From positions 2,655,363 through 2,719,362 of the forward strand of contig OZ242326.1 of assembly GCA_965208325.1 (NCBI GenBank): a DNA stretch of 64,000 nt, read 5' to 3'. Shown piece after piece: positions 23,296-61,459 of the stretch. How positions within the stretch are numbered: position 1 is the first letter of the stretch; each line of letters starts with the position of its first letter. The DNA comes from Candidatus Poribacteria bacterium. GTDB taxonomy: Bacteria > Poribacteria > WGA-4E > PCPOR2b. Under the pieces are notes generated by a model that made no database searches, was not told the origin of the DNA, and saw only the letters and a program-made list of their open reading frames with translations. A program made the position numbers and the translations under genes.

Positions 23296-23313
23296 AAGGG
23301 ATAGAATCCCCTC

Positions 23314-23390: not shown

Positions 23391-23391
23391 T

Positions 23392-23679: not shown

Positions 23680-23765
23680 GAAGCTTGACTTGTGAGTAAT
23701 AGCAAGCCTTATCAGGGGGGAATCTGAATGTGTGTAAATGGTGATATTTTAAGGACTGATAACCG

Positions 23766-24818: not shown

Positions 24819-24890
24819 AAGGAATGGACGGATACAGAGTAAACATCCCGCCGCTGTCCATACATTGTAAGTGGTAAAGGAGAGACTTCA

Positions 24891-25898: not shown

Positions 25899-25941
25899 CG
25901 ATAGGTATTTCAACAATCAGGAAACTGACGAAGAAAAGACC

Positions 25942-26883: not shown

Positions 26884-26884
26884 C

Positions 26885-29127: not shown

Positions 29128-29342
29128 CACAATAACCACAGGATTTGAGGTAGGTAAGAATATTACCCATTTTTTGATGATGTCCGTCCGACAGAGTATT
29201 GCAGCATCAAACAAATTTAAAAATGTTATATTATTTCACGGTGGGAGGGACATACTTGTCCCGATAATCGGGGCTAGGAAGCCCCTCCCACAGACATAAT
29301 CAATATCTATCTGACGCTGTATTATATAGCTATGACAAAATA

Positions 29343-30866: not shown

Positions 30867-30880
30867 ATGCAGGTGCACGG

Positions 30881-42580: not shown

Positions 42581-42612
42581 TCTAAACCATCCAACAGTTC
42601 CAACTGGCCATA

Positions 42613-42630
42613 TTTAGGCATGCCTAAATT
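42613..42630. promoter_or_regulatory. perfect 18-bp palindrome ATTTAGGCATGCCTAAAT: candidate DtxR-family operator (TTAGG half-sites)
   Basis: Lies about 33 bp upstream of the DtxR-family gene start. Resembles the IdeR/DtxR box TTAGGTTAGGCTAACCTAA. Confidence 0.5.
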
Positions 42631-42707
42631 TTAACTGGAATATGGTAATATGTACGAATAAACGCTGTCAAGCCAATTTTTGTCTTTATCGTCAAGAAGG
42701 TGTTTTG

Positions 42708-44786: not shown

Positions 44787-44845
44787 ATCGAATAACTCGG
44801 CTTTAATTAGCCGGAGATGTACCTGACACCGATATCAATACGTCT

Positions 44846-45856
44846 TCAAGGATTGAACTTGATGATTTCGCGGCACCGTGCGGATTTATGCAACGCATCG
44901 CAGATGCGCATGGTATCGACGGCGTCGGTTAGCAAGTCGCGATTAGGCTGCCCCAACTGAACCCACTCCGAAAACCGTTCGATCATCCGCACCTCCTGAA
45001 TGCACGACTTAAACTTGTGTTCTGCGGCTTTGCCCTGAACGTCGTGCACCCAAAATCGGGACGATTCCTCTTTCCAAGGGTCTACAAAATCGTCGCATAT
45101 CAAGGAGGCTCGGGTTCCCGCAATCTCAAACCACATGCGGCTCCCTACGTCGAAACCGCAATCAAACGAAGCCATCCGTTCGTCTCGAAACCAGAGGGTA
45201 CCCGACACATTGAAATCCGTACCCTGGTAATAGCGCGCAGTAGCGAAGACCTGATCAGGGAGATCGCCAAAAGCCCAGAGAATCGCGCGGATACAGTAAT
45301 AACCTAAATCGCCAAGACAGCCGCAGGCAAACTCCTTTTTCAACCGTATGTTATCTTCGGGAATCTTTTCCCAATTGAAAGTGAACGCCGCTGTTACCCG
45401 GCGCATCCGGCCTAAAACACCACTGGCTATGATTTGCTTCATCGCAAAGGTACGTTCGTGGTGAACCCACATGACGCCATCCATCAAATGCACATTGTGC
45501 GTGCGGCACGCAGCCGCCATAGCAGACGCTTCTTCTGCATTTGCGGTAAACGGTTTTTCGCACAGCACGTGTTTGCCGCATTCAGCCGCTTTGATGGTCC
45601 ATTCAGCGTGCATTGATGGCGGCAGGGGAATGTAGACCGCATCTATTTCCGGGTCCTCTAGTAGAGCATCGTAGTTTCCGTAGGCGCGGTCAACTCCATG
45701 CTCTAATGCCCATCCGCGAGCACGTACTTCCGTCCGGCTAGCGATCGCCGCTAATTCAGCGTTTTCTGCCAAGCGTATCGCACGACTCACCTTATCCGCA
45801 ATTCTTGCGGTGCTCAAAATCCCCCAGCGTACCTTCTGCTTCGGTGTAACAGTCAT
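44846..45856 (-). CDS. Gfo/Idh/MocA-family oxidoreductase
   Basis: VRWGILSTARIA Rossmann motif and EKP motif (HVLCEKPF). Confidence 0.85.
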   Translation of the reverse strand: MTVTPKQKVRWGILSTARIADKVSRAIRLAENAELAAIASRTEVRARGWALEHGVDRAYGNYDALLEDPEIDAVYIPLPPSMHAEWTIKAAECGKHVLCEKPFTANAEEASAMAAACRTHNVHLMDGVMWVHHERTFAMKQIIASGVLGRMRRVTAAFTFNWEKIPEDNIRLKKEFACGCLGDLGYYCIRAILWAFGDLPDQVFATARYYQGTDFNVSGTLWFRDERMASFDCGFDVGSRMWFEIAGTRASLICDDFVDPWKEESSRFWVHDVQGKAAEHKFKSCIQEVRMIERFSEWVQLGQPNRDLLTDAVDTMRICDALHKSARCREIIKFNP

Positions 45857-46237
45857 TATTTTACCGTTCTCTGTCTTATTTTAACCCTACCTGCTTGTCC
45901 ACGGGCGCAAAACGCCCTAGAAGATACCATAGCACCCTCAACTAAGAAATTCAAGCAAATACAAGTCGAAAAATGCCTCGTCTTCCGATCTTGAGGTGAA
46001 CCACTTGTCACATACTTTTTTGCTAAAATTGTTTGAATCGCGCCGATGATAAACGCTGACTGCTATTTCTCGCCTGGTCTGAATCTGTGGATTCACCCAG
46101 AGTCATTCCAACCCAACTTACCATCAACTCGGCAATAAAATTAAGTTTTCGGCCGGGCGATTCCTCGCTCCTTTCCACACGCACAACAATTGTAGTACTC
46201 TAAACACCGAATCATCCGCTGAGTACGGTCAAACACG

Positions 46238-47869
46238 TTAACTCACCTTTCCCCTAGCCTCCAACACCTTTGAAACCACGGTTTCTACATCTACTTCATC
46301 GACAAACGGGGATAGGATGAATGATTTCAGTGCCACGATTGGTTCGCCGTATTCGCTTCGCCGATAGCAGTCGGTAGTGGAAATGACAACGCCCCGCCCT
46401 TCCATCGCCTCCGAATGTACGTATTCAAAAATCTTCCGGTTGTAGTCGTTGTGAGACAGCAAGCTGTCGCGATAATTTGCGTCCTCAAATTCCTGCCGCT
46501 TGATTAAAAACGTATCGACGCCAATCGGATAGGTGCGGAAGAGCGTAACCGTGCCGAAGTTATCTCGATTCAGCACGGTTGTGCCTTCATGTCCTTCCAG
46601 ATGTTCCCGCAGGAGTTGCGTCATTTCAACGATGTGTCCGAGGATGACGCGCAATCCTTGCTCGCCAAACAATCGAAAATTGGCGAGGGCAGCGAGAACC
46701 CCTGTCCCGGATCGGGAAGTCTCAAGGGTGAACATTCCGGGGCGATGGTCGCCAAAGTGGTAGAGATACGGCATCTGTTCCGGGTGGCGTGTCACCAATT
46801 CCAAATCTGCTTGATTCTTGACGAGGACGAGACTAGAAATGTAAGGCGCAAAACCGGTTTTGTGAAAGTCGATTCCGACGGAATCCGCCGTGGACAAATG
46901 CCGTATTCGCCGGCATGCCCCCGCCAATGCGCGGATGGTACGTGGACGGAACCCGAGGGGGTTCTTCTCAACGTCATAGTCATTGAACACCGACCATGCC
47001 CACCCAATGACTGCGTCTGCGTGAATGTGCGGCTTGTAATCAAGTTTGAACTCTTTGACAAGCGCGTCGCGTAACGCCGCAATGCTCTGCAAATCGTCCA
47101 ACCCAAACGAATCGGTGGTACCCAATGTCGCAATAATCGCCGCAATTCGATTCCCGTTTTCTAGTACCGTCCGTGCTTGCTGCTCAAGTTGCACGAGATC
47201 GATTTCGTTTTCGACATTGGTCGGGATTGTAATCAGATTGTTCGTTCCGATTCCGAGCCAGCCGACGACGTTAGCGGCACAATAGTGGCCCGCGTCGGAA
47301 ACAAACACAACAGCGTTCTTAGGCACGCCCTTACCTATCGTCTCCGGGCAAGCCTTTTCCAAGCCCAACTTCACGCCATAGAGTGTCGTTCCGGTGCCGC
47401 CAAAGGTAAACATGCCGCTCGACTCTTTAGGGTCATATCCTATCAATTTTGAGGTCATAGCGACCACCTCAACTTCAGCCAATGCAACGAGGCGGCTATA
47501 TTCATCCCAAGCAATATTCGGATTGTACAGGGAAGCGAGGAGCACGCCAATCAGACTGGGAATCGTCGGCGGAGGAATAACGTTTTGCTGCGTACGGGGA
47601 TGCCCAAAGATTGTCATGCCTTGCAAGTAATTCACGAGTTCGGTCGTGACATCCTCAACGGAGGATACTCCATCCGGCAGCCTGGCCTCCTTTGCACGCT
47701 CGAAATTACCGGGAACGACGTTGCCGAGCATCGGCAGTTGCGTTTTCAGTGCATCAACCTGATCTAAGGCGCGCATGATTGAATGTACGAAATACGAATC
47801 ATGGATGGGGTGCGATACCGGCTGAGGAAAAGCGAGCCGGATTTTATCCAAGATTTCGCGGTATGCCAT
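46238..47869 (-). CDS. group II pyridoxal-dependent (amino acid) decarboxylase
   Basis: Fold-type I decarboxylase with the PLP-Lys in SVGIDFHKTG and GGTGTTLYG. Confidence 0.7.
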   Translation of the reverse strand: MAYREILDKIRLAFPQPVSHPIHDSYFVHSIMRALDQVDALKTQLPMLGNVVPGNFERAKEARLPDGVSSVEDVTTELVNYLQGMTIFGHPRTQQNVIPPPTIPSLIGVLLASLYNPNIAWDEYSRLVALAEVEVVAMTSKLIGYDPKESSGMFTFGGTGTTLYGVKLGLEKACPETIGKGVPKNAVVFVSDAGHYCAANVVGWLGIGTNNLITIPTNVENEIDLVQLEQQARTVLENGNRIAAIIATLGTTDSFGLDDLQSIAALRDALVKEFKLDYKPHIHADAVIGWAWSVFNDYDVEKNPLGFRPRTIRALAGACRRIRHLSTADSVGIDFHKTGFAPYISSLVLVKNQADLELVTRHPEQMPYLYHFGDHRPGMFTLETSRSGTGVLAALANFRLFGEQGLRVILGHIVEMTQLLREHLEGHEGTTVLNRDNFGTVTLFRTYPIGVDTFLIKRQEFEDANYRDSLLSHNDYNRKIFEYVHSEAMEGRGVVISTTDCYRRSEYGEPIVALKSFILSPFVDEVDVETVVSKVLEARGKVS

Positions 47870-48140
47870 GTCTATTCTCCGTCTCTATTGCAAATATTGT
47901 CGCCTATTTTACAATCGGCACAACGCCTAGGCTGGTGTCCGGTTCGAGCAAAGTAGAGGATACGTATATAGTGGATCGATAATCTTCGGGCATTATGCAA
48001 ACGAACTGACAACCACAATTCAGCCAAATTGCCACGCTGAAATAATAACACATCCACCGCCAGAAGTCACATTTTGCGCGGCTGGAGCGTAACGCAGTAG
48101 CCGCATCCAATTGACGGAATAGCAGGCTCACCGTGACGGG

Positions 48141-49331
48141 TTAAAATTTCGCTCTAATCTGCACTCGAGTCTTGTGCTGATAAGGATTTGATCCGGAAGC
48201 GATTATCTTTTTAGCAATGAAATATAGCACTTCCACGCCGATATTCTTCTCGACCGGCAAGGCAAATTTCAGTTCATGCCCATGTGTATTCGGGTTAAAT
48301 ATATCGGCGTTGTTATAGTTAGATATCATTGATGCCTGTTCCACCCTAACATAATGGTAGAGCGCACGAAGTTTGTGTAGACGAGGAACGGGGCCAACTC
48401 CGACCTCAAACCAATATGCCGTGTCATTCAAATTCGCCAATCGATTCTGCGCATAAGACGCGAGAAGCCACACCGGCACAGTTTCGATTTCTAGTTCATA
48501 CTTCGCAAGCCCCTCAATTATCCTGAATCCAAACGGATAGACTGAGGTGCCTGTACCCGCGCCTACCCGCGCATTTGTATCCCCGCCGCCCAACCTGCCA
48601 TCTTCAACCGCTTGGGCGATGTTGTCCTCGTTTCGATATTCATAAAGCATGGCACCGAACGACAATCCTTTGAGTTGAAATCCCTTGAAAAACAGTTGCC
48701 CCGCGAAAAGGTTCGTATCCGCTCCGCTCTTTGTCTCCGCGAGAATGAACTGCCCTAGATTTGCCCGCACCTGTGAAATAAATCCTACGTCGTCAATGCG
48801 TAACTGTTGGGCTGCCCCTTCCAACTGCACATCGTTGTGAAAAACCAGCTCAACACGTTCAAACGGGTTGGCAAATTTGCCTATGGCAACCGTAAGGGAC
48901 GAGTGCGGCGAATACCGGAGAAAAAGCCTATCAAGATTGAACCCTTTCTTCGAGAAATAGTCGTCTAGGTCAACATTGCCCGTGGTTGGGTCATCCGTCG
49001 CACCCGTGACCATTCTGAAACCGAGATTCACGCGCGGATGAACTGGAAAGTTGCCGCCCATACGAAAACGTATTCGGTATCGATACCGGCTCGGAGAATC
49101 GTCCTGAAAAATGCTCTCTTGGCGGAATCTTGCATCGGCAAAGAAAAACTCCTGCCAAAGCGGCTGTGCTAGCCGAGACACGTCTTTAACCGTCGGCGAT
49201 CCATTTTTGAGAACCGCCGATTCCTGCACTTTTTGAATCTCAGTTACCGAAATCGTATCGGCAGAGGAGATTTGAAGCAACATAACGGTATTAAATACGA
49301 TAATCCGGGCGTAAACGCCGAGTCTTTTCAT
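48141..49331 (-). CDS. outer-membrane beta-barrel protein (putative porin)
   Basis: Signal peptide, alternating amphipathic beta-strand pattern, and a C-terminal aromatic (…RAKF). Confidence 0.55.
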   Translation of the reverse strand: MKRLGVYARIIVFNTVMLLQISSADTISVTEIQKVQESAVLKNGSPTVKDVSRLAQPLWQEFFFADARFRQESIFQDDSPSRYRYRIRFRMGGNFPVHPRVNLGFRMVTGATDDPTTGNVDLDDYFSKKGFNLDRLFLRYSPHSSLTVAIGKFANPFERVELVFHNDVQLEGAAQQLRIDDVGFISQVRANLGQFILAETKSGADTNLFAGQLFFKGFQLKGLSFGAMLYEYRNEDNIAQAVEDGRLGGGDTNARVGAGTGTSVYPFGFRIIEGLAKYELEIETVPVWLLASYAQNRLANLNDTAYWFEVGVGPVPRLHKLRALYHYVRVEQASMISNYNNADIFNPNTHGHELKFALPVEKNIGVEVLYFIAKKIIASGSNPYQHKTRVQIRAKF

Positions 49332-49465
49332 TGCTGGCTCCGCTGCAAGGTTTGGTGTTCAATGATTTAACGCTACTGTACAGAATTTGGACAGCAAAAA
49401 TCACTCTACACAACAAAATCGGTAGAAACTCTGTGTGTAGAAGTGTTATCCGTTCTAAATCCCAT

Positions 49466-49481
49466 TGGCACGAGGATTGCG
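49466..49481 (+). promoter_or_regulatory. candidate sigma-54 promoter TGGCACG-aggaTTGCG upstream of TonB-dependent receptor
   Basis: Matches TGGCACG-N4-TTGC exactly in the -24 and -12 cores. Lies about 70 nt upstream of the ATG at 49550. Confidence 0.55.
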
Positions 49482-49549
49482 TATGCATAATAACAACGAT
49501 GTCAAAATCTTGCAATCTAAAAAAAAGGTGTTGGGAAGGAGAGTAACTG

Positions 49550-51862
49550 ATGACAATTGGACGAAAACAACTATGGGTAGGATTGAGTTTTTTTCTAATC
49601 AGTATCAATCCCGCATTTTCTACGGTGGACGAGGCGAAAGTGAACCCCATTGAGTTGGAGGAAATCACCGTCATTACCCGCGTCCCAAAAGATACTTTCC
49701 GAACACCGAACTCGATTTCCGTCATTGACCGAACGCAAATCGAACGCATCAACGCCGACATCACGCCCCGAATTCTACGCGAAACCGTCGGAATTTGGGC
49801 GCAGCAGACGACTGCCGGGCAAGGTTCGCCGATGCTGCGCGGCCTCACCGGATATCAAGCTTTTCTTTCTATAGATGGCGTCCGACTCAACAACTCTACC
49901 TTTCGCTCCGGTCCAAATCAGTATTTGGGGACAATAAGCCCAGCTAACCTTGACCGAATTGAAGTGTTGCGGGGCGCTGGGTCAATGCTATACGGCAGCG
50001 GCGCCATGGGCGGTGTCATTAGCATGTTCACTAAAGATGTGATTCTGGACAATGCAACGGATAAATGGAACATCCAGTCCCGCACTTTCGGTCGATTCGC
50101 TTCCGGAACTTCAGAACGGCTAGGTCGCTTTGAGGTAATGGGAAACCGCAGGCGGCTCGGGTTTTCGTTTGGTGCGTCCGCCCGCCGGTTCGGTGATATC
50201 AATTCGGGCAGCGGTTACGACCTGCACTACAAGAACCGTAAATTTGAAATTGTCAGCGAAAAACCGCCGGGCGTTGAAATCTTTGAAGGTCCGCCGAAAG
50301 ATGTGCCGGAGCGTTGGCTGATTGACTCTGAAGCGCCGCTGGATTGGAGCGCATACGACGGCGACGCCAAACTCGCCTACCAACTCACTGACACCAGTGC
50401 GGTAAACGTCGCCTACCAACTCTGGCGTCAACCGAAAACCCCGCGCTACGACAAGATTGCACCGCGCGAGTTCGACGAGTTCTTTTTCGAACCCCAACAC
50501 CGAGATCTTCTTTATGCGACTTACTTGAAAGAACCAGCTAACTCCGAGATAGACCAGTTTCGATTTACCGCCTCTTTTCATCGGCAGAAAGAAGGGCGGA
50601 ACGAACTCTTGCGGGATGCCACGGAAAGGCGAGAGCGGTTTGACAAGGTCAACACGTTTGGTCTGAGTGCACAGGCAACCAATGCATCGCTGCCTAACCA
50701 ACGTATTGTCACAGGCGTCGAATTTTATTTCGATACCCTTTCGAGCCAAACCGTCAAGACCGACGTCACGACCGGCGCTGAGAAGGTAGACAACACAAAA
50801 GGACGCTTTATCGACGGATCTCGCTTCTGGGATGCGAACCTCTACGTTCAAGATGAAATTGAGCTGCACGACCGGCTGGAACTCACGCTCGGCGGGCGAT
50901 TCACCCACTATAATACACAAGCCGACCTTTCGGCGCGTTCCGATCAATTTAGCGACTTTAACGAATCCGGAAACGCATTGACCGGAAGTGCAGGCGTCGT
51001 GATAAGCGTCACGGACGGACTGAACCTCGTCGGCAATTTCGCCACATCGTTCCGTGCGCCTTCGCTGAATGATACCACCGCCGTTGAAGTCACCAACGAA
51101 GGTATAGACTCGCCTTCGCCCGCCCTCAAATCAGAGACTGGGTGGACAGCAGAAACCGGTCTTAAAGCACGCTATTCGCAGTTCATTGGCTCGCTTACCC
51201 TTTTTCACGGCCGCATCGACAATTTGGTCACGCGCGTCCCCGTCGAAGAAGCATATGCAGGACAATCGCTTCCAAGCCTGATTACGGAAATTCAACGCAA
51301 CAATCCAGGCGTTGATGTCTATGTATTCGACAATGTTGATGAAGTGCAGACTCAAGGCATCGAGTTGGCTGGAATGTTCACTATCCGAAACAGTTGGGCG
51401 TTCTACGGTAACACGGCTTACACACGCGGGAAGGTGTTGGTGCTTAACGGTGCCGCGCCTAACCCCGATAATCCTTGGGAAGGACGGATTCGCCGTGAAC
51501 CGCCGCTCAACGGAATGTTCGGTATCCGATGGCACCCGTCAGCTAAGCGGTACTGGGGAGAAATTTTCGTTCGCGGCGCAACCGAACAGCGGCGATTGAA
51601 TCGCAGTGACATACGAGACCCGCGAATCCCAGGCACTACCCGTGATACCGGTGAGGTCGAGTTTGATTCACACGGTGCAGCGGTTGGGCAAGGTTCGGCG
51701 AGTTGGGTCACGCTTAATCTGCGAGGCGGTTATCACCTGACCGATTACAATCGAATGACGGTTGCACTTGAAAACCTGTTGGATGAGCGGTATCGCGAGC
51801 ACGGCTCCGGCATCAACGCACCGGGGTTGAATGTGATTGTCAGTCTAGACAATCGATTCTAA
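49550..51862 (+). CDS. TonB-dependent outer-membrane receptor
   Basis: Signal peptide, plug domain (ISVIDRTQIE...LRGLTGYQAFLSIDGVRLNN...RIEVLRGAGSMLYGSGAMGGVI), a 22-strand barrel, and a C-terminal F. Confidence 0.9.
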   Translation: MTIGRKQLWVGLSFFLISINPAFSTVDEAKVNPIELEEITVITRVPKDTFRTPNSISVIDRTQIERINADITPRILRETVGIWAQQTTAGQGSPMLRGLTGYQAFLSIDGVRLNNSTFRSGPNQYLGTISPANLDRIEVLRGAGSMLYGSGAMGGVISMFTKDVILDNATDKWNIQSRTFGRFASGTSERLGRFEVMGNRRRLGFSFGASARRFGDINSGSGYDLHYKNRKFEIVSEKPPGVEIFEGPPKDVPERWLIDSEAPLDWSAYDGDAKLAYQLTDTSAVNVAYQLWRQPKTPRYDKIAPREFDEFFFEPQHRDLLYATYLKEPANSEIDQFRFTASFHRQKEGRNELLRDATERRERFDKVNTFGLSAQATNASLPNQRIVTGVEFYFDTLSSQTVKTDVTTGAEKVDNTKGRFIDGSRFWDANLYVQDEIELHDRLELTLGGRFTHYNTQADLSARSDQFSDFNESGNALTGSAGVVISVTDGLNLVGNFATSFRAPSLNDTTAVEVTNEGIDSPSPALKSETGWTAETGLKARYSQFIGSLTLFHGRIDNLVTRVPVEEAYAGQSLPSLITEIQRNNPGVDVYVFDNVDEVQTQGIELAGMFTIRNSWAFYGNTAYTRGKVLVLNGAAPNPDNPWEGRIRREPPLNGMFGIRWHPSAKRYWGEIFVRGATEQRRLNRSDIRDPRIPGTTRDTGEVEFDSHGAAVGQGSASWVTLNLRGGYHLTDYNRMTVALENLLDERYREHGSGINAPGLNVIVSLDNRF

Positions 51863-51910
51863 TCGAAGGGAATTTGCTGGAGGTCCAAATGAACCGGAGA
51901 TATCGAAACG

Positions 51911-51957
51911 TGCACAAAACCGAGCAAGCGTACATCTGAATTGCACCGTTTTGTGCA
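51911..51957. promoter_or_regulatory. 10-bp inverted repeat TGCACAAAAC / GTTTTGTGCA in the TBDR-WD40 spacer
   Basis: Perfect arms flanking a 27-nt loop. No U-tract, so it is not a canonical terminator. Confidence 0.3.
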
Positions 51958-52043
51958 ACGGCCGACACACTAAAAAAACACATACTGTTCGTACGGCTGG
52001 ACTTAACGCGCATACCGCGCCGAAATTGAAGTGGCGAATCCGT

Positions 52044-52059
52044 TGGCACGCATTTTGCC
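52044..52059 (+). promoter_or_regulatory. candidate sigma-54 promoter TGGCACG-cattTTGCC upstream of the WD40 gene array
   Basis: Full match to the TGGCACG-N4-TTGC consensus. Lies about 95 nt upstream of the ATG at 52155. Confidence 0.6.
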
Positions 52060-52154
52060 CGTCCATTTAATCACCTCGAAGACACTAATCTAGTTTCGTT
52101 AACTAGAATTCTCAGAAGTGAGTATTCACGTGATGATTAAAGAGGAGAGAGACA

Positions 52155-54401
52155 ATGCAAACTGACAAGCAAAACCAATTCATGAAAATGGCACAATTTG
52201 TAACATTAATACTTCTCGTATTGGTAACGGTCACATTTGCATCAAACAGCTCCGCCCAAGGTTCTCCGCAATGGAGTCTCCCCGATGGCGCTAAAGCCCG
52301 CTTCGGCAAGGGTGAGATAAATGAAATACAGTATTCGCCCGACGGTACACGGCTTGCGGTGGCTAGCGGTATCGGTATTTGGCTCTACGATACGGCGACC
52401 CATCAAGAAGTCGCGCTGCTCGCGGGGAATATGTCCGCCGAAAGCGCTGCGTTCAGTCCGGATGGGCGTACCATTTTAAGCGCAAATGGAGACTCAATCC
52501 GATTCTGGCACGCCGATACTGGCGAATCCATGCGAACCGTTACCGTATCGGATTCGGTCGAAAGCGTTGGGTTCAGTCCCGATGGGCGCGCTATAGTAAG
52601 TAGTGCGAGTTGGGGCGATACCGGTGACGAGGATTGGGGAGATACCATCCGTCTTTGGGACGCCGATACGGGCGAACTTCTACACACGCTCACCGGGCAT
52701 TCTAGTATTGTTGAAATCGTTGCGTTTAGTCCAGATGGACGCACTGTCGCCAGCGGGGGTTGGGATGCTACCGTCCGGATGTGGAACGCTGACACGGGCG
52801 AAATCCTTCAAACCCTCATCGGGCATTTTGGTAGTGTCGATAGCATTGCATTCAGCCCCGATGGTGCAATGCTTGCCAGCGCGGACTTTTTCGACATTCG
52901 GTTGTGGGACATTGCTACAGGCGAACTTCTCCGGACGTTCGAGCCGGAAAGAAGTGGCGTCAATGGCGTCGCATTCAGCCCGGACGGCACAACGCTTGCC
53001 AGTGGGATTTGGGAAGAAATTCATCTGTGGGACACTGCTTCGGGCGAACTCATCCGAACGCTCAACGGACATACGAGTTGGGTCAATAGCGTTGCGTTCA
53101 ATCCTGATGGGCGCACTATCACCAGTCACAGCCGAAACGGCGCCATCCGGATGTGGGACGTTACCTCGGGCAACCACCTCGGAACGCTCAACGGGCATAC
53201 GAGTTCGCTCAGGAGCATCGCGCTCGCCCCTGACGGCGCGACGCTCGCTGGCGGGAGCGATACCGGGACCGTACGGCTGTGGGACATTGCGTCTCGCCAA
53301 CACCTGCGTACACTCACTGGAAACAGCCGTAGTGTCAGTAGCGTCGCTTTCAGCCCAGGTGGCACAACGATCGCTACCGGGAGTGATGACAGTAATGTAC
53401 GGCTGTTAGACATTGCGGATGGGGAACTCCTACGAACACTCAGCGGACATAGCTTGAGTGTCCATAGCGTAGCCTTCAGCCCAGATGGTGACAGAATCGT
53501 TAGCGGAGGTTATGACAGTCGGGCGCGGCTTTGGGACGCTGCCACAGGAAACCACCTGTTCACGTTCGACGAGCATGCGGGTTCTGTCAACACCGTCGCA
53601 TTCCACCCAAATGGGCGCACGGTCGCCAGTGCGGGTAGGGACACCCTCATCCGCCTGTGGGACGCCGCCACGGGCAAGCAATTAAAAACGCTCGAAGGAC
53701 ATACGGGTGCCGTCGGTAACGTCGCTTTCAGTCCTGACGGTGCGATGCTCGCTAGTGGAAGCTGGAGTGAGATTATTCTGTGGGACACAGCATCGGGCGA
53801 ACTACTGCAAATACTCAGCGGGCATACGAGTTCGGCCAGTAGCCTCGCTTTCAGCCCGAATGGCAATACGCTCGCGGGCGGAAGCTCGGAAGAGATTCAC
53901 CTGTGGGACATCGCCACAGGCAACCACCTGCGAACACTCGCCGGGCATGCGAAGTCGGTCAGTAGTGTCGCTTTCAACCATGATGGTGACACTCTCGCGA
54001 GTGCAAGTTCGGACGGCACCGTGCTGCTTTGGGAAATTTCCCCATCAACCGGTGTTGGGATTTCGGTAGAACCTTTGGAAAGCCGCATCACGACGTTGGG
54101 AAACATCAAACGCACGGCGCTGCTGCAGAATTATCCAAATCCGTTCAACCCTGAAACCTGGATGCCATATCAGTTGGAACAAGACGCTTACGTCACCTTA
54201 ACCATCTATGACCAGAGCGGTAATGTCGTCCGCATCCTTGACATTGGACATCAAAAACCGGGAGTCTACCGAGACAAATCAGAAGCGGCGTATTGGGACG
54301 GCCGCAACCAAAACGGAGAACCCGTCACCAGCGGCACGTATTACTACCAACTCCGTGCGGGCGATTACACCGCATTACGGCGGATGGTGATTGTCAAGTA
54401 G
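52155..54401 (+). CDS. secreted WD40-repeat protein with T9SS type-A / FlgD-Ig-like C-terminal sorting domain
   Basis: Signal peptide, EIQYSPDGTRLAVASGIGIWLYDTATHQEV, about 14 WD repeats (…IRLWD…), and C-terminal LLQNYPNPFNPETWMPYQL…YYYQLRAGDYTALRRMVIVK. Confidence 0.85.
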   Translation: MQTDKQNQFMKMAQFVTLILLVLVTVTFASNSSAQGSPQWSLPDGAKARFGKGEINEIQYSPDGTRLAVASGIGIWLYDTATHQEVALLAGNMSAESAAFSPDGRTILSANGDSIRFWHADTGESMRTVTVSDSVESVGFSPDGRAIVSSASWGDTGDEDWGDTIRLWDADTGELLHTLTGHSSIVEIVAFSPDGRTVASGGWDATVRMWNADTGEILQTLIGHFGSVDSIAFSPDGAMLASADFFDIRLWDIATGELLRTFEPERSGVNGVAFSPDGTTLASGIWEEIHLWDTASGELIRTLNGHTSWVNSVAFNPDGRTITSHSRNGAIRMWDVTSGNHLGTLNGHTSSLRSIALAPDGATLAGGSDTGTVRLWDIASRQHLRTLTGNSRSVSSVAFSPGGTTIATGSDDSNVRLLDIADGELLRTLSGHSLSVHSVAFSPDGDRIVSGGYDSRARLWDAATGNHLFTFDEHAGSVNTVAFHPNGRTVASAGRDTLIRLWDAATGKQLKTLEGHTGAVGNVAFSPDGAMLASGSWSEIILWDTASGELLQILSGHTSSASSLAFSPNGNTLAGGSSEEIHLWDIATGNHLRTLAGHAKSVSSVAFNHDGDTLASASSDGTVLLWEISPSTGVGISVEPLESRITTLGNIKRTALLQNYPNPFNPETWMPYQLEQDAYVTLTIYDQSGNVVRILDIGHQKPGVYRDKSEAAYWDGRNQNGEPVTSGTYYYQLRAGDYTALRRMVIVK

Positions 54402-54502
54402 CGGCAAATCGTTGCAGCGATTCCGCGTTATTTTATAACCTCGTTTCTGCAATTACTGAGGACGACGTGATTTACGATACTCAACCATCCAGGGCAACTG
54501 TT

Positions 54503-56779
54503 ATGAAGATAGCGTTGATTTTCAAAATTAGCTTACTGTGCGTTTCCGCTCTTTGTCTGCCGCATAGCCTCGCTCAAAAATCTCCGCAATGGAGCCTGCC
54601 CGAAGGCGCAATAGCTCGCCTTGGAAAGGGTAGGATAAGCGATATACAGTATTCGCCCGACGGCACTCGACTTGCGGTAGCGAGCAGCATCGGTATTTGG
54701 CTCTATGATACGGCGACCCATCAAGAGGTTACACTGCTCGCCCCGCATATTTATGTCGAAAGCGTTGCGTATAGTCCGGATGGGCGCACCATCGCGGGCG
54801 GAAGCAGTGACAACATCATCCGACTGTGGGACGCACATACGGGTGAACAACGGCGAATACTCATCGGACATACGAGTTGGGTCAGGACAGTTGCGTTCAG
54901 CCCTGACGGACGCACACTCGCAAGTGGGAGCAGTGACGACACCGTCCGGCTGTGGGATGCGCTCACGGGAAAACTCCTTCACACACTCACCGGGCATTCG
55001 GACGAAATTCGCAGCGTTGCGTTTAGTCCTGATGGCAACTCGCTCGTAAGCGGGAGCAGCGACAATTCCATCCGTCAGTGGGACTCATTTACGGGCGAAC
55101 ACCGGCGAACACTCACCGGACACACGTCTGGCGTAGTAAGCGTCGTGTTCAGTCCAAATGGGCGTACCATTGCAAGTGCGAGCGGGATCAGTGATGGAGA
55201 CGGCATCCGGCTGTGGAACACCGATACGGGACAACTTCGGAGCACGCTCATCGGACATTCGGGGCGGGTCACGAGCGCCGCGTTTAGTCCCGATGGTGAC
55301 AGAATCGCAAGTACTAGTTGGGACAATACAATCCAACTGTGGGACGCACATACGGGTGAACACCGACGAACACTCACCGGACACACGTCTGGAGTAGTCA
55401 GCGTCGTGTTCAATCCTGATGAACGTACGCTCGCAAGTGGTAGTGGAGACGGTACTATCCGGTTATGGGACATTGAATCGGGAGAATTCCTGCGATCAAT
55501 CCCCGGGCATACGGGTTGGGTCGACACCGTTGAATTCAGTCCCGATGGACAAACGCTCGCAAGTGTGAGTTCGAGCTATATCGTTGAGCACAGTCCAAAC
55601 CGCCGCGCAGGAAGTGGGGGCGGCAACGCAACTATCCGGCTGTGGAACGCCGATACCGGAAAACTCAGGCTATCAATTAACGAGTACAAGAATGGAATTG
55701 ATGACGTTTCGTTTAGTCCCGATGGGCGCACTCTCGCTGGTGTTGGCTGGAACAGTATCCAATTATGGGACACCAACACCGGAGAACTTCTGCGAACACT
55801 CAGGGAGCATGAAGGTTGGGTCAATACTATTGCGTTCAGCCCCAATGGACGCACAATTGCTACTGGAGGGAGTTGGGACAACGTCGTCCGTCTTTGGGAC
55901 GCCGATACCGGAAAACTCCGGCAATCGCTCATCGGACATACCGATTCGGTCACGAGCGTTGCCTTCAGCTCCGACGGACACACGCTCGCAAGTTGTGCGG
56001 GATTAGACAATACCATCCGTATGTGGGACGCCAATGCGGGAAAACTCCTGCGTACGTTCACTGGAACTACCGGTTTGGGAGCGAGCGTTGCCCTAAGTGC
56101 CGATGGAAGCACGCTCGCAAACGCCGGTAATTGGGATGGCACCGTCCTGCTCTGGGATACCGATTCAGGCGAACTCCTACATACCCTCACCGGACATAGA
56201 TTTGACGTCGAAAGCATTGCGTTCAGTCCCGATGGACTCATCCTCGCCAGCGGAGGGAGTTGGGACGACACCATTCGACTGTGGAACATCAAATCGGGGA
56301 AACTCCACCAAACACTCAAAGGCCATGCGATTGGGGTGCGAAGCGTGGCGTTTAGTCCGAATGGACGTACGATGGCTAGCGCCGGTTTGGACGGCACAAT
56401 ACTCCTTTGGGATTTTACTCTCAGCACCTCCGATGACGTTGCGGTTGAGAATTTGCCGCAGCTCACCACGACCCTGGGAAACATCAAACGGACGGCGTTG
56501 CTGCAAAATTACCCGAATCCGTTCAACCCCGAAACCTGGATACCGTATCAGTTGGAAAAGAATTCACTGGTGACCTTGATTATCTACAACCAAAGCGGCC
56601 ATATCGTCCGCACACTTGACATAGGGCATCAAAGTTCGGGAGCTTACCTAGACAAATCAGAAGCGGCGTATTGGGATGGATGCAACCAGAACGGAGAACC
56701 CGTTACCAGCGGCGCGTATTTTTGTCAACTCAGGACGGGTGATTACAGCGCGTTACGGCGAATGTTGATTGTCAAGTAA
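54503..56779 (+). CDS. secreted WD40-repeat protein with T9SS type-A / FlgD-Ig-like C-terminal sorting domain
   Basis: Same architecture as the 52155 gene. Start assigned to the Met at 54503 (MKIALIFKISLLCVSALC signal peptide). Confidence 0.85.
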   Translation: MKIALIFKISLLCVSALCLPHSLAQKSPQWSLPEGAIARLGKGRISDIQYSPDGTRLAVASSIGIWLYDTATHQEVTLLAPHIYVESVAYSPDGRTIAGGSSDNIIRLWDAHTGEQRRILIGHTSWVRTVAFSPDGRTLASGSSDDTVRLWDALTGKLLHTLTGHSDEIRSVAFSPDGNSLVSGSSDNSIRQWDSFTGEHRRTLTGHTSGVVSVVFSPNGRTIASASGISDGDGIRLWNTDTGQLRSTLIGHSGRVTSAAFSPDGDRIASTSWDNTIQLWDAHTGEHRRTLTGHTSGVVSVVFNPDERTLASGSGDGTIRLWDIESGEFLRSIPGHTGWVDTVEFSPDGQTLASVSSSYIVEHSPNRRAGSGGGNATIRLWNADTGKLRLSINEYKNGIDDVSFSPDGRTLAGVGWNSIQLWDTNTGELLRTLREHEGWVNTIAFSPNGRTIATGGSWDNVVRLWDADTGKLRQSLIGHTDSVTSVAFSSDGHTLASCAGLDNTIRMWDANAGKLLRTFTGTTGLGASVALSADGSTLANAGNWDGTVLLWDTDSGELLHTLTGHRFDVESIAFSPDGLILASGGSWDDTIRLWNIKSGKLHQTLKGHAIGVRSVAFSPNGRTMASAGLDGTILLWDFTLSTSDDVAVENLPQLTTTLGNIKRTALLQNYPNPFNPETWIPYQLEKNSLVTLIIYNQSGHIVRTLDIGHQSSGAYLDKSEAAYWDGCNQNGEPVTSGAYFCQLRTGDYSALRRMLIVK

Positions 56780-56887
56780 CTCCACACAATTGAAGCAAGA
56801 AACCAACCGTTTTAAAAAAACTGGACTCTATGGTTACTGCGTGCGGTATGAATCAGATGCGGCACACCAACATGGAGGGTTATTGCA

Positions 56888-59119
56888 ATGAAGTTAGCGG
56901 TATTCTTGATGCTTAGCTCATTGTTCGTTTCAAATCTATCGATTCCGCATAGCTTCGCCCGAGATTTTCCACGATGGGGGCCGCCCGAAGGGGCAATTGC
57001 ACGTATCGGCAAAGGCAGGATAAGTGAAATCCAATATTCGCCCGACGGCACTCGACTCGCGGTCGCAAGCAGTATGGGTATTTGGCTTTACGATACCGCC
57101 GCCCATCAGGAGCTCGCCCTGCTCACCGGGCAAACGCCTGTGACTACCGTGGCATTCAGCCCCAATGGGCACACCATTGCGGGTGGGGGTGAGAACACTA
57201 TCCGTTTGTGGAACGCTGCTTCCGGTAAACACGTACTATCGCTCAACGGGAATACGAAATTGGTCAGGAGCGTTGTATTCAGTCCCGATGGCCGCACAAT
57301 CACAAGTGGAGGTGAGGACAAGAATATCAGTCTGTGGGATGCCGACACAGGAAATCAACTACTTACGCTAAGCGGGCACACTGGCTCGGTCAATAGCATC
57401 GCGTTCAGTCCTGACGGAAAAACACTTGCTAGCGGCAGTAGTGACGGCACTGTCCGTTTCTGGAACACGGATACTGGAAAACACCTGAGAACGATTACCC
57501 AGAATAAATCTGGAGTCGGAATCGTTGCATTCAGTCGCGATGGAAACACACTCGCCAGCGGGGGTAGCTCCATCATCCGCTTGTGGGACGTCAATACCGG
57601 GATTCAGCGGCGAATTCTCACCGGGCATACGTCCGGAGTCGAAAGCGTCGCTTTCGGTCCCGATGGTAACACAATCGCTAGTGGGGACGGTGCCGGCATC
57701 ATCTATCTGCGGGACGCTGATACGGGTAATCGCCGGTTTACGTTCACCGGGCACACAGATTCAGTCACGAGCCTGGCGTTTAGTCCCGATGGAAACACAA
57801 TCGCTAGCGCGAGCGCAGACGGCACAATCCGTCTGTGGGACACCGATTCGGGAAGACACCGGCAGACGCTCACTAGACCGGGCACGGTCAATAGCATTGC
57901 GTTCAGTCCCGATGGTAACACAATCGCTAGTGGGAGCGGGGATAACACCATCCGTCTTTGGAACGCAGATACACGGGATTATCAGCGTACACTCACCGGA
58001 CATTCGGATTGGGTCTATAGCGTAGCCTTCAGTCCCGATGGTAACACAATCGCTAGTGGGAGTTGGGACAATACCATCCGCCTATGGGAGGCGGATACAG
58101 GAAAACACCTGCGTACACTAGACGGGCATAGGGGTTTTGTCAACAGCATCGTATTCAGTCCCAATGGCAAAACACTCGCTAGTGGGAGCGCGGACGATAC
58201 CATCCGTCTGTGGGACACCGAATCGGGAGCACATCAACGTACGCTCATCGGGCATACAGATTGGGTCTACAGCGTCGCGTATAGTCCAGATGGAAACACA
58301 ATCGCTAGTGGAAGCGGCGATGGCACCATCCGTCTTTGGAACGCAGTTACAGGAAAACCGCGACGCACGCTCACCGGACACACGCATTGGGTCTTTTGCG
58401 TCGCCTTTAGCCTAGATGGAAACACAATCGCTAGTGGAAGCGGCGACGATACTATCCGTCTGTGGGACTCAAACACAGGAAATCTTCGACGAACACTTAC
58501 AGGGCATGCACTTCCGGTCGAAAGCGTCGCATTCAGTCCAGATGGAAACACACTCGGTAGTGGAAGTACGGACCATACTATTCGGCTCTGGGACACTGAT
58601 ACTGGCGAACACTTGAGGACACTCACCGGACACACGGCTACGGTCTATGATTGGGTCTTTAGTGTAGCGTTCAGTCCCGACGGCAAAACACTCGCTAGCG
58701 GCGGAAGTTGGACTGGCGATGGAAATCGGGACGGTACCGTGTTGCTGTGGGAATTTCCCGCTTCTAGCGGCGTTGGGGTCGGTGTGAAACCGTTGGCAAA
58801 ACTTACCACGAAACTCGGAAACATCAAACGAACGGCGCTGTTACAGAATTTCCCGAATCCGTTCAATCCCGAAACCTGGATACCGTATCAGTTGGAAAAA
58901 GGTGCTTGGGTCACATTAACCATCTATGACCAGAGCGGTCACATGGTCCGCACCCTAGACATCGGAAATCAAGTTTCAGGAGTGTACCTAGACAAATCAG
59001 ATGCGGCGTATTGGGATGGCCGCAATCAAAACGGAGAACCCGTAACCAGCGGCACGTATTACTATCAACTCCATGCGGGCGATTACGCCGCATTACGGCA
59101 GATGGCGATCGTCAAGTAG
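56888..59119 (+). CDS. secreted WD40-repeat protein with T9SS type-A / FlgD-Ig-like C-terminal sorting domain
   Basis: Same architecture. Contains an uninterrupted run of about 14 WD repeats. Confidence 0.85.
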   Translation: MKLAVFLMLSSLFVSNLSIPHSFARDFPRWGPPEGAIARIGKGRISEIQYSPDGTRLAVASSMGIWLYDTAAHQELALLTGQTPVTTVAFSPNGHTIAGGGENTIRLWNAASGKHVLSLNGNTKLVRSVVFSPDGRTITSGGEDKNISLWDADTGNQLLTLSGHTGSVNSIAFSPDGKTLASGSSDGTVRFWNTDTGKHLRTITQNKSGVGIVAFSRDGNTLASGGSSIIRLWDVNTGIQRRILTGHTSGVESVAFGPDGNTIASGDGAGIIYLRDADTGNRRFTFTGHTDSVTSLAFSPDGNTIASASADGTIRLWDTDSGRHRQTLTRPGTVNSIAFSPDGNTIASGSGDNTIRLWNADTRDYQRTLTGHSDWVYSVAFSPDGNTIASGSWDNTIRLWEADTGKHLRTLDGHRGFVNSIVFSPNGKTLASGSADDTIRLWDTESGAHQRTLIGHTDWVYSVAYSPDGNTIASGSGDGTIRLWNAVTGKPRRTLTGHTHWVFCVAFSLDGNTIASGSGDDTIRLWDSNTGNLRRTLTGHALPVESVAFSPDGNTLGSGSTDHTIRLWDTDTGEHLRTLTGHTATVYDWVFSVAFSPDGKTLASGGSWTGDGNRDGTVLLWEFPASSGVGVGVKPLAKLTTKLGNIKRTALLQNFPNPFNPETWIPYQLEKGAWVTLTIYDQSGHMVRTLDIGNQVSGVYLDKSDAAYWDGRNQNGEPVTSGTYYYQLHAGDYAALRQMAIVK

Positions 59120-59185
59120 GAGAACGACGTGTTCAATGACTATTCTGCGGATTACGTTATTTATGTCGCAGTTTACAGAACTATA

Positions 59186-61405
59186 ATGAAAACAGTCTCC
59201 ACGTTAATTTTCTGTCTGACGTTAACTTCAGTTGTTTTTGCCGAACTTCGGCCCATCGGTTCATTGGGAAAGGGTGAACTCCGGGATATTACCTTCCTGC
59301 CAGATGGGAGAATTCTGCGCGTTCTTTCTAACCGTATTGAGTTAGCCGACCCAAATACTAGGGAAACTATAGGACGATTTGCTGACAGAACAGTGTCTAT
59401 GGGGAATGTCACGGTCAGCAGAGACAGTTTGAGGTTAGCAATTGTACGGACAAAGCGCTCCCCATCGCAAACTGCGATTGAAATATGGGAGTTGGCATCA
59501 CAACGAAAAATCCTTCAACGCACGATCCCGCTGACCCTTTATCACACAGCATTGAGCCCAGATCTAATGGTTTTTGCTGGACACAATGAGGGAATAATTC
59601 GCCTCTGGAGTGTCGAAACGGGCGAATCTCTCGGTGAGGTTAAATGGACGGATCAGCCCAGCTTTGTCCGGTTAGCGTTCAACTCAGATGGGCGGCAACT
59701 ACTCTCCATCAATTCTTATATCTCCCGTGAGCTTCCCGGTGGCGACGACCATTGGGAGACGGCCATAAGCAACTGGGATATTGCTTCTCGTCAACGCTTG
59801 TGGAGCTACACAAGAACTTTTAGGGTAATACGTGCGATATACAGTCCTGATGGTCGTTGGATTGTTATGGCTGACACCAATGATCGGATTCAGTTTTGGG
59901 ACGCGAAGCTAGGGACGCAACAGCTTGTTTTGCACGTCACAGGTAATGCGCAAAAAATGCGATTCAGTCCCGATAGCAAGAGGATTTACATTGCATCCGG
60001 CACAAGCGGTTACCCAAGGCAACCCAATCGGGTAAGCATCTGGGATATCGAAACCGGTGAACAACTCCAGGAATTGGGCGACGAAACACTTGGCATTGAG
60101 GGGCTTACTATTTCGCGCGATGAAACACAAGCAGTGATCTGGTATCACAATGGATTTGTCTCGCTATGGGACATTCAACAACGCCGCCGTCTCGCGCTCC
60201 AAACCGATTACGTTTCTCCGAGTTGGGGATCTGTTACGCCGGATGGGCACTACCTAGTCAGTGGATCGAACGCTGCCCTCATAATCTGGAATCTCCGTAC
60301 ACAATCGCTCCAGGCAACAATCTTCCCCAACGAGTATGTTTTCCGTCATGTTGCGATGTCGCCGCACGGACAGTATTTTGCTGTAGGTCATGACCCATGG
60401 ATAGAAATACGGGAGGCACGCAGCGGTCAAATTCTTTTAAAAGTTCCAAATAATGTTGGATCGACACCCTACGTTTTCAGTAACGACGGGAGGCGGCTTG
60501 CCGTAGGCCAGCATAGCAGTGTAGTCATTTACAATCTTCACAATCCCGATAAACGGGAAGAACTGTTGCCAAAGGAACAAGCTTACATCTCAGAACGTCA
60601 TATCGTTTTCAGCCCGGACGACCGCTATCTGGCAGTATCGGATTGGGACAACGAGGTGCATCTGTGGGAAAATAACATGGACAGATATGTCCATCGCTAT
60701 TCGTGGCAAATTCCGGCATCTCAGATCGACGACATCGAATTTGAGCCGAAACCGACGAATCCTGCGCTAGTTGTTATCGGAAATGGGGATGAGTTACAGG
60801 TGTGGGAACTTGGAGACACCGCCCCGAAGCAATCAATGCGTTTCAATGCCTCCGCTCCAATCCATTTTGTGCACGGCGGTGCTGAGTCTCTCCATCTGCA
60901 AAGGGATTACCTGTTTGTTAATCACGGGGGAAGACTTCAGATTTGGGATTGGGCAATCAAAACACCCGTCACGGCACCTGACATCCCACGCTACTTTGCT
61001 GCAAATCGGGATGGTTCAGTCGTGGTAGCCCGGGATTATGTTTCCGACCAAACGCGAATCTGGAACGTCCGACAACTAATCTTTCCCAAACCGATACTTT
61101 TGGGCGAAGTTAGACGGACAGCGCTCTTGGCAAATTTCCCGAATCCACTCAACCCTGAAACATGGATTCCCTACCAACTTGCAGATTCTGCTAATGTGCA
61201 AATCCATATTTATGATGTTGCGGGGCATCTGGTACGGACGTTAGATTTAGGCACGAAACTCGCGGGGAGTTATCTCTCACGAGAGACTGCGGCCTATTGG
61301 GACGGCCGCAATAATATGGGCGAGGCGGTCGGCAGCGGGGCATACTTCTACACGCTGGAGACCGGTGATTTTCGGACCACGAGACGCGTGACTGTTGTGA
61401 AATAG
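59186..61405 (+). CDS. secreted divergent beta-propeller protein with the same C-terminal sorting domain
   Basis: Signal peptide and irregular beta-propeller repeats. C-terminal RTALLANFPNPLNPETWIPYQL…AYFYTLETGDFRTTRRVTVVK. Confidence 0.75.
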   Translation: MKTVSTLIFCLTLTSVVFAELRPIGSLGKGELRDITFLPDGRILRVLSNRIELADPNTRETIGRFADRTVSMGNVTVSRDSLRLAIVRTKRSPSQTAIEIWELASQRKILQRTIPLTLYHTALSPDLMVFAGHNEGIIRLWSVETGESLGEVKWTDQPSFVRLAFNSDGRQLLSINSYISRELPGGDDHWETAISNWDIASRQRLWSYTRTFRVIRAIYSPDGRWIVMADTNDRIQFWDAKLGTQQLVLHVTGNAQKMRFSPDSKRIYIASGTSGYPRQPNRVSIWDIETGEQLQELGDETLGIEGLTISRDETQAVIWYHNGFVSLWDIQQRRRLALQTDYVSPSWGSVTPDGHYLVSGSNAALIIWNLRTQSLQATIFPNEYVFRHVAMSPHGQYFAVGHDPWIEIREARSGQILLKVPNNVGSTPYVFSNDGRRLAVGQHSSVVIYNLHNPDKREELLPKEQAYISERHIVFSPDDRYLAVSDWDNEVHLWENNMDRYVHRYSWQIPASQIDDIEFEPKPTNPALVVIGNGDELQVWELGDTAPKQSMRFNASAPIHFVHGGAESLHLQRDYLFVNHGGRLQIWDWAIKTPVTAPDIPRYFAANRDGSVVVARDYVSDQTRIWNVRQLIFPKPILLGEVRRTALLANFPNPLNPETWIPYQLADSANVQIHIYDVAGHLVRTLDLGTKLAGSYLSRETAAYWDGRNNMGEAVGSGAYFYTLETGDFRTTRRVTVVK

Positions 61406-61459
61406 GATTGCTCCTCAAATCGCCGCCGCCAATAAACATCAATTGACCTTAATGCCGTT

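Follow-up and report, generated by a model that had tools for sequence, protein, structure and literature searches.

Whether two short sequences in a 64,000-nt stretch of Candidatus Poribacteria DNA (hereafter the window) are sigma-54 (RpoN) dependent promoters, and which surface proteins they would switch on if they are, is the question raised by this locus. Poribacteria live in abundance as symbionts of sponges and have never been grown in culture. The first element, TGGCACGCATTTTGCC (TGGCACG-CATT-TTGC-C; 52044-52059, + strand; core TGGCACGCATTTTGC, 52044-52058), lies before an array of WD40 genes, and its GC end is 97 nt before the ATG at 52155. The second, TGGCACGAGGATTGCG (TGGCACG-AGGA-TTGC-G; 49466-49481, + strand; core TGGCACGAGGATTGC, 49466-49480), lies before a TonB-dependent receptor gene, and its GC end is 70 nt before the ATG at 49550. 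Sigma-54 polymerase forms a closed complex at a -24 GG and a -12 GC, and the DNA is then opened with ATP by a hexameric AAA+ enhancer-binding protein (EBP); transcription is expected to start about 12 nt downstream of the GC and to require RpoN as well as an EBP that hydrolyses ATP. A preliminary description of this DNA had called both sites textbook examples, and their positions, strand, sequences and 10-nt GG-GC spacing are confirmed here. Every specified base of TGGCACG-N4-TTGC is present at both sites, so that the description holds for all invariant positions; it goes too far only at the final W of TTGCW, where the match is incomplete because the base after TTGC is G (49481) or C (52059), not A or T.

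Both sites are, in our judgement, very probably genuine sigma-54-dependent promoters. The features by which such a promoter can be recognized in a sequence are all found here: the core itself, a noncoding position in the orientation of the following gene, conservation among orthologs, upstream activating sequences (UAS), and an EBP with a GAFTGA motif. In the mechanism that we propose, sigma-54 holoenzyme would form a closed complex on the -24/-12 elements, and an EBP bound to palindromes 70 to 130 bp upstream would loop over and, on receiving its signal, open the DNA through ATP hydrolysis. The receptor gene would be transcribed from a predicted start at about 49492 by way of TGTNCA-N5-TGNACA sites at 49356-49393, and the WD40 array from a predicted start at about 52070 by way of TGCAC-N6-GTGCA sites at 51911-51957. 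Since the two enhancers differ, two activators, and therefore two signals, would be involved.

The comparisons below draw on a one-genome-per-species scan with the receptor protein, which yielded 71 Candidatus Poribacteria loci with flanking DNA of up to 10 kb. Receptor orthologs in these 71 genomes are 57 to 89% identical at the protein level.

Genes downstream of the two elements

The gene behind the receptor element (49550-51862, + strand) encodes a TonB-dependent receptor of 770 aa (receptor 1) with a Plug domain (PF07715, E 6e-21) and a beta-barrel (PF00593, E 4e-40). Its nearest NCBIfam subfamily is that of the heme/hemoglobin receptors, with a score below the cut-off, and Pfam finds only the Plug and the barrel, with no signalling-extension domain. 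The 748-aa product of the first gene of the WD40 array (52155-54401, + strand) carries a signal peptide and, at its C-terminus, a sorting tail of the NYPNPFNP type. Three further WD40 or beta-propeller genes follow on the same strand (54503-56779, 56888-59119 and 59129-61405), the last of which carries a T9SS type A sorting domain, and the series ends with a second TonB-dependent receptor (receptor 2; 61460-63511, + strand), in which PF07715 and PF00593 are matched more weakly than in receptor 1.

None of the three further WD40 genes (54503-61405) is preceded by a sigma-54 motif, and all three are probably transcribed together with the first. A search of the gaps between genes over 52155-63511 gave no sites resembling terminators or sigma-70 promoters above chance. 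The WD40 promoter would probably drive this whole unit of about 11 kb (52155-63511), that is, four secreted WD40/beta-propeller genes and receptor 2. In many related genomes receptor 2 lies directly 3' of receptor 1, and in others WD40/PD40 genes lie between them; given how often the two receptors adjoin, the WD40 array has the look of an insertion specific to one lineage.

The probable WD40 promoter and its cassette

Upstream of the WD40 element lies a dyad, TGCACCGTTTTGTGCA (TGCAC-CGTTTT-GTGCA, of the form TGCAC-N6-GTGCA; 51942-51957, + strand), centred about 95 nt upstream of the GG, and a further copy with one mismatch, TGCACAAAACCGAGCA (51911-51926, + strand), is found 31 nt upstream of it. 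By its sequence, the proximal dyad is presumably the site of a second, NtrC-like activator. It is the single perfect match to TGCAC-N6-GTGCA in the window. Across the 71 loci this dyad marks all five WD40 cassettes, occurring as a pair at every one, and one further sigma-54 motif, TGGCACGTAAATTGC, in the distant locus L048, where UAS and motif stand before an unrelated ORF with a signal peptide. The only other occurrence in these loci, about 400 nt downstream of the receptor gene in L027 and with no sigma-54 motif seen nearby, was set aside as chance. The arms of the dyad are invariant and its spacer is variable. UAS-to-GG distances in the WD40-type modules, as calculated from coordinates, are about 95.5, 98.5 and 103.5 nt, without tight phasing. 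On the other side of the core, the 5' leader of the first WD40 gene (52060-52154, + strand) is conserved and contains an inverted repeat (52066-52078 / 52129-52141) that adjoins the ribosome-binding site. In the WD40 arrays, a sigma-54 motif stands before the first gene of each only.

Orthologs of the first WD40 gene can be found in only the three nearest genomes (L001-L003), and the element is 97 nt before the ATG in each. A search with the full-length WD40 protein returned repeat paralogs (33 to 53% identity) and no orthologs, and it was replaced by tblastn of the non-repeat N-terminus against the loci. Because the upstream region is 85% identical overall among these three close genomes, the comparison of orthologs is weak when taken alone. 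The case for the WD40 promoter comes instead largely from the duplicated copies of the cassette and from its analogy with the receptor promoter. In L003, the orthologous WD40 gene and its upstream region are placed after receptor 2 and not between the receptors; the 280-bp upstream region and the WD40 gene therefore move as one. In addition, L002 and L003 each hold a second, diverged copy of the cassette (L002_b and L003_b) before another WD40 gene of about 740 aa. When the window is compared with these paralogous cassettes, all specified -24/-12 bases are kept and the two upstream dyads (51911-51926 and 51942-51957) retain 81 to 94% identity (81% for the distal one), whereas identity is 40 to 47% in the DNA between the dyads, 59 to 65% in the spacer from dyads to core, and 58 to 59% in the leader.

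The alternative that survives best accepts the receptor promoter and takes the WD40 element to be a relic of the duplicated cassette, with the array expressed mainly by read-through that begins at the receptor promoter, or from an unrecognised housekeeping promoter. Such an arrangement would agree with the lack of any terminator-like site found after the receptor 1 gene, with L003 and L005, where no sigma-54 motif precedes the WD40 gene that directly follows the receptor, and with the derivation of the WD40-site orthologs from three close genomes only. A relic, however, has to be reconciled with -24/-12 bases and UAS arms that were kept while the intervening cassette DNA fell to 40 to 65% identity, with a 97-nt distance to the ATG that was kept in the different context of L003, and with the same module of UAS plus promoter before an unrelated gene in distant L048. 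We therefore consider it unlikely, and favor an active sigma-54 promoter before the WD40 array.

The probable receptor promoter

The receptor element can be followed through the whole comparison set. Of the 71 loci, 67 have TGGCA[CT]-N5-TTGC no more than 400 nt upstream of their receptor ortholog, where the chance expectation per locus is below 0.001 (by arithmetic from the information content of the pattern). In L056, the element lies farther upstream, before an N-terminal gene fragment that an inserted ORF has split from the remainder of the receptor, and in L064 it likewise lies farther upstream, before an extra ORF of 341 aa. L004 has a single-base variant, TGGCGC-N5-TTGC. With L052 left out of the count, as its contig ends 78 nt upstream of the gene, the element is present in 70/70 loci having upstream DNA. 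Its surroundings have diverged: when the promoters are anchored on the motif, positions flanking the core carry 0.1 to 0.5 bits, and in MAFFT alignments the core appears as an island of identity.

A different reading of the same conservation is that something other than sigma-54 binds here, for instance a dimeric repressor on GGCA-N7-TGCC or another alternative sigma factor, and that the upstream palindromes are operators of a sigma-70 promoter. GGCA-N7-TGCC is indeed an inverted repeat in those window sites that read TTGCC and in most of the closer loci, and no rpoN gene was found in the window or the 22-kb loci. Across the 70 receptor promoters, however, the base after TTGC that would complete the palindrome carries 0.1 bits, with A, T, G and C all present, while the asymmetric positions of the sigma-54 consensus (T before GG, CA after GG, and TT before GC) are invariant. 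That this one base varies speaks against a symmetric repressor site and favors the asymmetric sigma-54 consensus. A 10-nt spacing between GG and GC is, moreover, foreign to -35/-10 and ECF-type promoters, and the window contains an EBP gene with a GAFTGA motif that is itself followed by an element of the same type. On the coding strand of the receptor and WD40 intergenic regions, no sigma-70-like promoter or hexamer pair was found with the E. coli consensus, which may not fit Poribacteria. Taken together, these observations make a binder other than sigma-54 very improbable. RNA-based control was considered as well: Rfam gave no match over 49300-52300, with no riboswitch in the leaders, and the receptor and WD40 leaders fold no better than shuffled sequence (z -0.57 for the WD40 leader).

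The presumed receptor enhancer

Alignments reveal a second conserved island upstream of the receptor, TGTTCA-N5-TGAACA. In the window it takes the form of the palindrome TGTACAGAATTTGGACA (TGTACA-GAATT-TGGACA, of the pattern TGTNCA-N5-TGNACA; 49377-49393, + strand), centred 82 nt before the -24 GG, at about -106 from the predicted start; it is the single perfect match to the pattern in the window. This proximal palindrome is presumably, to judge from its sequence, the site of an enhancer-binding protein. A distal and degenerate copy, TGTTCAATGATTTAACG (49356-49372, + strand), is centred 21 nt upstream of it; a second UAS, at 102 to 103 nt from the GG, scores at least 9/10 in L002, L003, L015 and L018. 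At a threshold of at least 9 of the 10 specified bases within 250 nt upstream, TGTNCA-N5-TGNACA is carried by 69/70 receptor promoters (perfectly by 53), compared with a background of 0.023 per 250 nt as measured over the whole sequence set, promoters included.

The distance from palindrome centre to GG is not spread evenly; it takes discrete values of 69 to 72, 81 to 82, 91 to 95 and 102 to 103 nt, in steps of about one helical turn. An EBP that loops to the sigma-54 holoenzyme is expected to depend on the face of the helix at about -95 to -125. By its sequence and placement, the phased receptor palindrome is a typical activator-binding enhancer. Inspection by eye gave no convincing match to an IHF site between UAS and core. 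As for the activator, no EBP gene is conserved beside the receptor: by tblastn of the 71 loci, an EBP lies within 10 kb in L008 and L009 only, so that no cognate receptor activator can be proposed from synteny.

Selectivity of the motif

In the window, the exact motif TGGCACG-N4-TTGC has two matches over both strands, for 0.08 expected, and 1 of 100 shuffles reached two. The relaxed form TGGCA-N6-TTGC has three matches, for 0.78 expected, the third being TGGCATAGAAATTGC at 7145-7159. All three are intergenic, in a window of which 14% is intergenic, and all three have the orientation of the next gene and lie 62 to 97 nt before its start. The preliminary description had held that an abundance of equally good matches in coding regions would mark the sites as chance; inside the coding sequence of the 64-kb window there is no match to TGGCA-N6-TTGC. 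If two mismatches are allowed, the window has 33 matches for 21 expected, an excess to which WD40 codons that yield near-matches may contribute. One of the look-alikes, a one-mismatch match at 34-48, was considered as a fourth promoter and rejected because it is located within a coding WD40 repeat (SPDGTRLA). On a larger scale, over 1.5 Mb of Poribacteria loci, a 10/10 motif stands upstream of 72 of 949 non-WD40 ORFs; about 70 of those 72 are receptor orthologs plus the three window promoters, so that very few remain.

That both matches are functionless and owe their presence in AT-rich intergenic DNA to chance, as might be supposed from a short consensus of only 11 specified bases, from the number of two-mismatch matches and from look-alikes made by WD40 codons, is effectively refuted by conservation, for the strict matches exceed expectation and are all intergenic and co-oriented, the receptor element persists among loci that are far from near-identical copies and is coupled to a phased palindrome, and the WD40 element has survived both duplication and relocation. 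The reading of the two sites as sigma-54 promoters, first offered in the preliminary description, thus gains support from the receptor element and the conserved UAS palindromes, and the inverted repeats that it had named as something to be looked for exist, and are conserved, upstream of both promoters.

Comparison with known systems

The consensus for NtrC sites is TGCACC-N5-GGTGCA. The WD40 UAS resembles such a site, reading TGCACC-N4-GGTGCA in L002 and TGCACC-GTTT-TGTGCA in the window, but the spacer between its hexamers is 4 nt, not the 5 nt of the 17-bp NtrC dyad, in all six modules. The UAS of NifA is TGT-N10-ACA, located about 80 to 110 bp upstream of the -24 element and sensitive to helical phase. 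The receptor UAS is similar in its TGT...ACA form, in its distance upstream of -24 and in its sensitivity to phase, but it reads TGT-N11-ACA, not N10, in all 69 carriers, its half-sites have six bases (TGTTCA), and it has no nif context. In general layout, both promoters are like enteric glnAp2 with NtrC: they have a -24 TGGCAC / -12 TTGC core with 10-nt GG-GC spacing (for the consensus, see PMC3162934), two dyad sites about 70 to 130 bp upstream that are whole helical turns apart (21 and 31 nt here), and an NtrC-family response-regulator EBP in the genome. They differ in their targets, which in Poribacteria are secreted WD40 proteins and TonB receptors and not nitrogen assimilation, and in their host, here an uncultured sponge symbiont.

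TonB-dependent receptors are usually controlled by Fur/DtxR repression, by FecI-type ECF sigma/anti-sigma pairs, or by riboswitches. The poribacterial receptor is like these in that expression of a transporter would be made conditional on a signal; it differs in having a conserved sigma-54 core and enhancer, and would thus be a case of a TonB-dependent receptor under enhancer-dependent control and not under control of the Fur, ECF or riboswitch type. An ECF arrangement, the FecIR system, is described in PMC12655853. Sigma-54 control of TonB receptors had been called unusual in the preliminary description, and our literature search found no sigma-54-dependent TonB receptor; the surprise is nevertheless mild, as tonB itself (COG0810) is a predicted sigma-54 target in Flavobacteriia in a 2025 survey (PMC12316311). 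Cell-envelope and transport functions are, more generally, recurrent predicted targets of sigma-54, which has been called a 'controller of the bacterial exterior' (PMC12316311; PMC3162934). Among the targets described in the consulted passages of these papers there are no TonB receptor genes and no WD40 eukaryote-like proteins. These surveys cover cultured representatives (16 phyla in PMC12316311), and neither PMC12316311 nor PMC3162934 came up in full-text searches on Poribacteria. We found no literature on sigma-54, RpoN or transcriptional control in Poribacteria. Their WD40 proteins with secretion tails of the Por type are a known hallmark and have been catalogued, in a paper that holds nothing on sigma factors or expression (PMC3909097).

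The switch is of a well-known type, and its observation in an uncultured phylum is new. As the mechanism is a textbook one, what the finding adds is annotation and knowledge of the biology of this phylum, and no new principle. The predicted start sites can be looked for in sponge metatranscriptomes, and the two UAS motifs can be used to list regulons and to search for the activators. A wider picture may be entertained tentatively, as a possibility that we would not yet lean on: the secreted 'eukaryote-like' WD40 surface proteins, to which a part in interaction with the sponge host is ascribed, would not be expressed constitutively but would be switched on by a signal through a dedicated NtrC-like activator and sigma-54; their control region, with its two TGCAC-N6-GTGCA sites, -24/-12 element and leader, would act as a portable cassette that is copied and moved with WD40 genes; and a second sigma-54 regulon, defined by TGTTCA-N5-TGAACA, would be built around the phylum-wide TonB receptor. 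If this were true, these uncultured symbionts would rely on sigma-54 as a principal means of reshaping their surface in answer to cues from the host or from nutrients. The phased, phylum-wide receptor promoter and the portable WD40 cassette both offer testable entry points to regulation in Poribacteria.

The enhancer-binding protein and a probable third promoter

The sole EBP gene of the window (5386-6810, + strand) encodes a receiver, a sigma-54 AAA+ domain and a Fis-type HTH. Its GAFTGA motif is intact (...HKRGAFTGADSD...), and the Sigma54_activat domain is matched with E 2e-54. A protein 100% identical to it is encoded on a contig of 4,707,648 bp. True sigma-54 activators are recognized, according to PMC3162934, by an intact GAFTGA motif. 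The window has no second EBP by tblastn and no kinase adjoining the EBP gene, just as had been noted of this NtrC-type response regulator at the outset.

A third -24/-12 element, TGGCATAGAAATTGCT (7145-7160, + strand), which the preliminary description does not mention, lies 335 nt downstream of the EBP gene and before an ORF at 7221-9257. A protein search and contig look-ups yielded three homologous EBP genes, and TGGCA[CT]-N5-TTGC stands about 330 nt downstream of each: in L152 (EBP 78% identical, same synteny), in L153 (66%) and in L154 (63%, with a PAS kinase upstream). Being conserved downstream of homologous EBP genes, the third promoter suggests that the EBP has a cis-linked target of its own. 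Neither TGTNCA-N5-TGNACA nor TGCAC-N6-GTGCA is present upstream of this promoter. The difference between the receptor and WD40 palindromes argues for separate activators, and the absence of both at the third promoter implies three distinct activator specificities. There would then be three regulatory units in one window, made up of core promoter, enhancer and target genes, and the receptor unit is conserved in 70 genomes. A tandem GGCGCGCCAG repeat (7037-7056) was considered as the UAS of the third promoter and rejected, as it is not conserved in the ortholog in L152.

No match to rpoN was found by a domain search of the window or by tblastn of the window and the 22-kb loci with an E. coli RpoN sequence as query, as expected for a gene that does not lie near this locus. 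The genome nevertheless presumably encodes it, to go by the co-occurrence of EBPs and sigma-54 (PMC12316311), by the GAFTGA criterion, and by the distribution of sigma-54, which is almost universal in LPS-bearing diderms (PMC3162934). A metagenome scan with the EBP gave long matches at 33 to 43% identity only, the higher figures belonging to short fragments of the receiver domain. For the EBP paralog cluster P0169 and for the cluster of the window EBP, the longest contig is 4,707,648 bp in both.

Sigma-54 elements beyond the receptor and WD40 promoters

A third sigma-54 -24/-12 element, TGGCATAGAAATTGCT, is located at 7145-7160, 335 nt 3' of the enhancer-binding protein (EBP) gene at 5386-6810. 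It is followed by an ORF (7221-9257) whose 678-aa product is UshA-like at the N terminus, glutaredoxin-like in the middle and membrane-associated in character at the C terminus. The arrangement recurs in related Poribacteria genomes, where counterparts of the element also lie 3' of EBP homologs (three homologous genes, in loci L152, L153 and L154). About 100 nt 5' of the third promoter is a tandem direct repeat, GGCGCGCCAG-GGCGCGCCAG (7037-7056), in which each of the two units is an AscI-type palindrome. This repeat was considered as an enhancer of the third promoter but probably does not serve as one, because the orthologous locus L152 has no conserved copy. The EBP of the window is an orphan, whereas in another Poribacteria genome (L154 1860-4940) a homolog that is 63% identical has a PAS-domain histidine kinase directly 5'. 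Several Poribacteria carry 2-4 paralogs of this EBP per chromosome.

The pairing of an upstream palindrome with a sigma-54 element seen at the WD40 array can also be found in a distant Poribacteria genome. At L048 164-288 (minus strand), TTGCACAAATCCGTGCAG lies ~100 nt 5' of TGGCACGTAAATTGC, and the module is followed by a small ORF whose first segment is hydrophobic and signal-like. This hints that the regulon of the putative activator recognizing TGCAC-N6-GTGCA extends more widely. Care must be taken with any sigma-54 motif scan of WD40-rich genomes, as the codons of WD40 repeats (…SPDGTxLA…, TGGCACAACGCTTGC) match the consensus nearly or fully within coding DNA and are a source of false positives. 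Such look-alikes occur in the window at 34-48 and, for instance, also at 52985 and 53360, as well as at 13300-13800 of L001/L002. The sigma-54 motif is absent from a long co-oriented cluster at 19357-32392, which is probably a surface-polysaccharide locus and encodes glycosyltransferases, sugar epimerases/dehydratases, a DegT aminotransferase, a B12-binding radical SAM enzyme and a polysaccharide flippase.

Genomic context of the WD40 array and the receptor

The four-gene WD40 array (52155-61405) is flanked by two TonB-receptor genes. Its placement was compared with loci L007, L009, L010, L013 and L015; the receptor genes adjoin each other in several relatives, hence the array has the appearance of a lineage-specific insertion between them. 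In other relatives, a WD40 or a PD40 (TolB-like) propeller gene fills the equivalent position. In the first WD40 gene of the array, the 5' leader (52060-52154) is more conserved than the DNA 5' of the promoter and contains an inverted repeat (52066-52078/52129-52141) abutting the ribosome-binding site. An Rfam search of this leader gave no match, and it folds no better than shuffled sequence.

In L056 (8136-9974), an inserted 372-aa ORF on the opposite strand, perhaps a mobile element, seems to interrupt the receptor ortholog; the N-terminal receptor fragment is still preceded by its sigma-54 promoter and upstream palindrome (UAS). The genes 5' of the receptor in the window, on the minus strand (41909-49331), include a GFO/IDH/MocA oxidoreductase, an acyl-CoA synthetase, a DtxR-family metal repressor with a FeoA domain, a PLP-dependent decarboxylase weakly similar to diaminobutyrate/aspartate decarboxylases, and a putative porin. 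Judging from these neighbors, the receptor context may be metal- or siderophore-related. The porin start codon lies only ~45-60 nt from the proximal receptor UAS.
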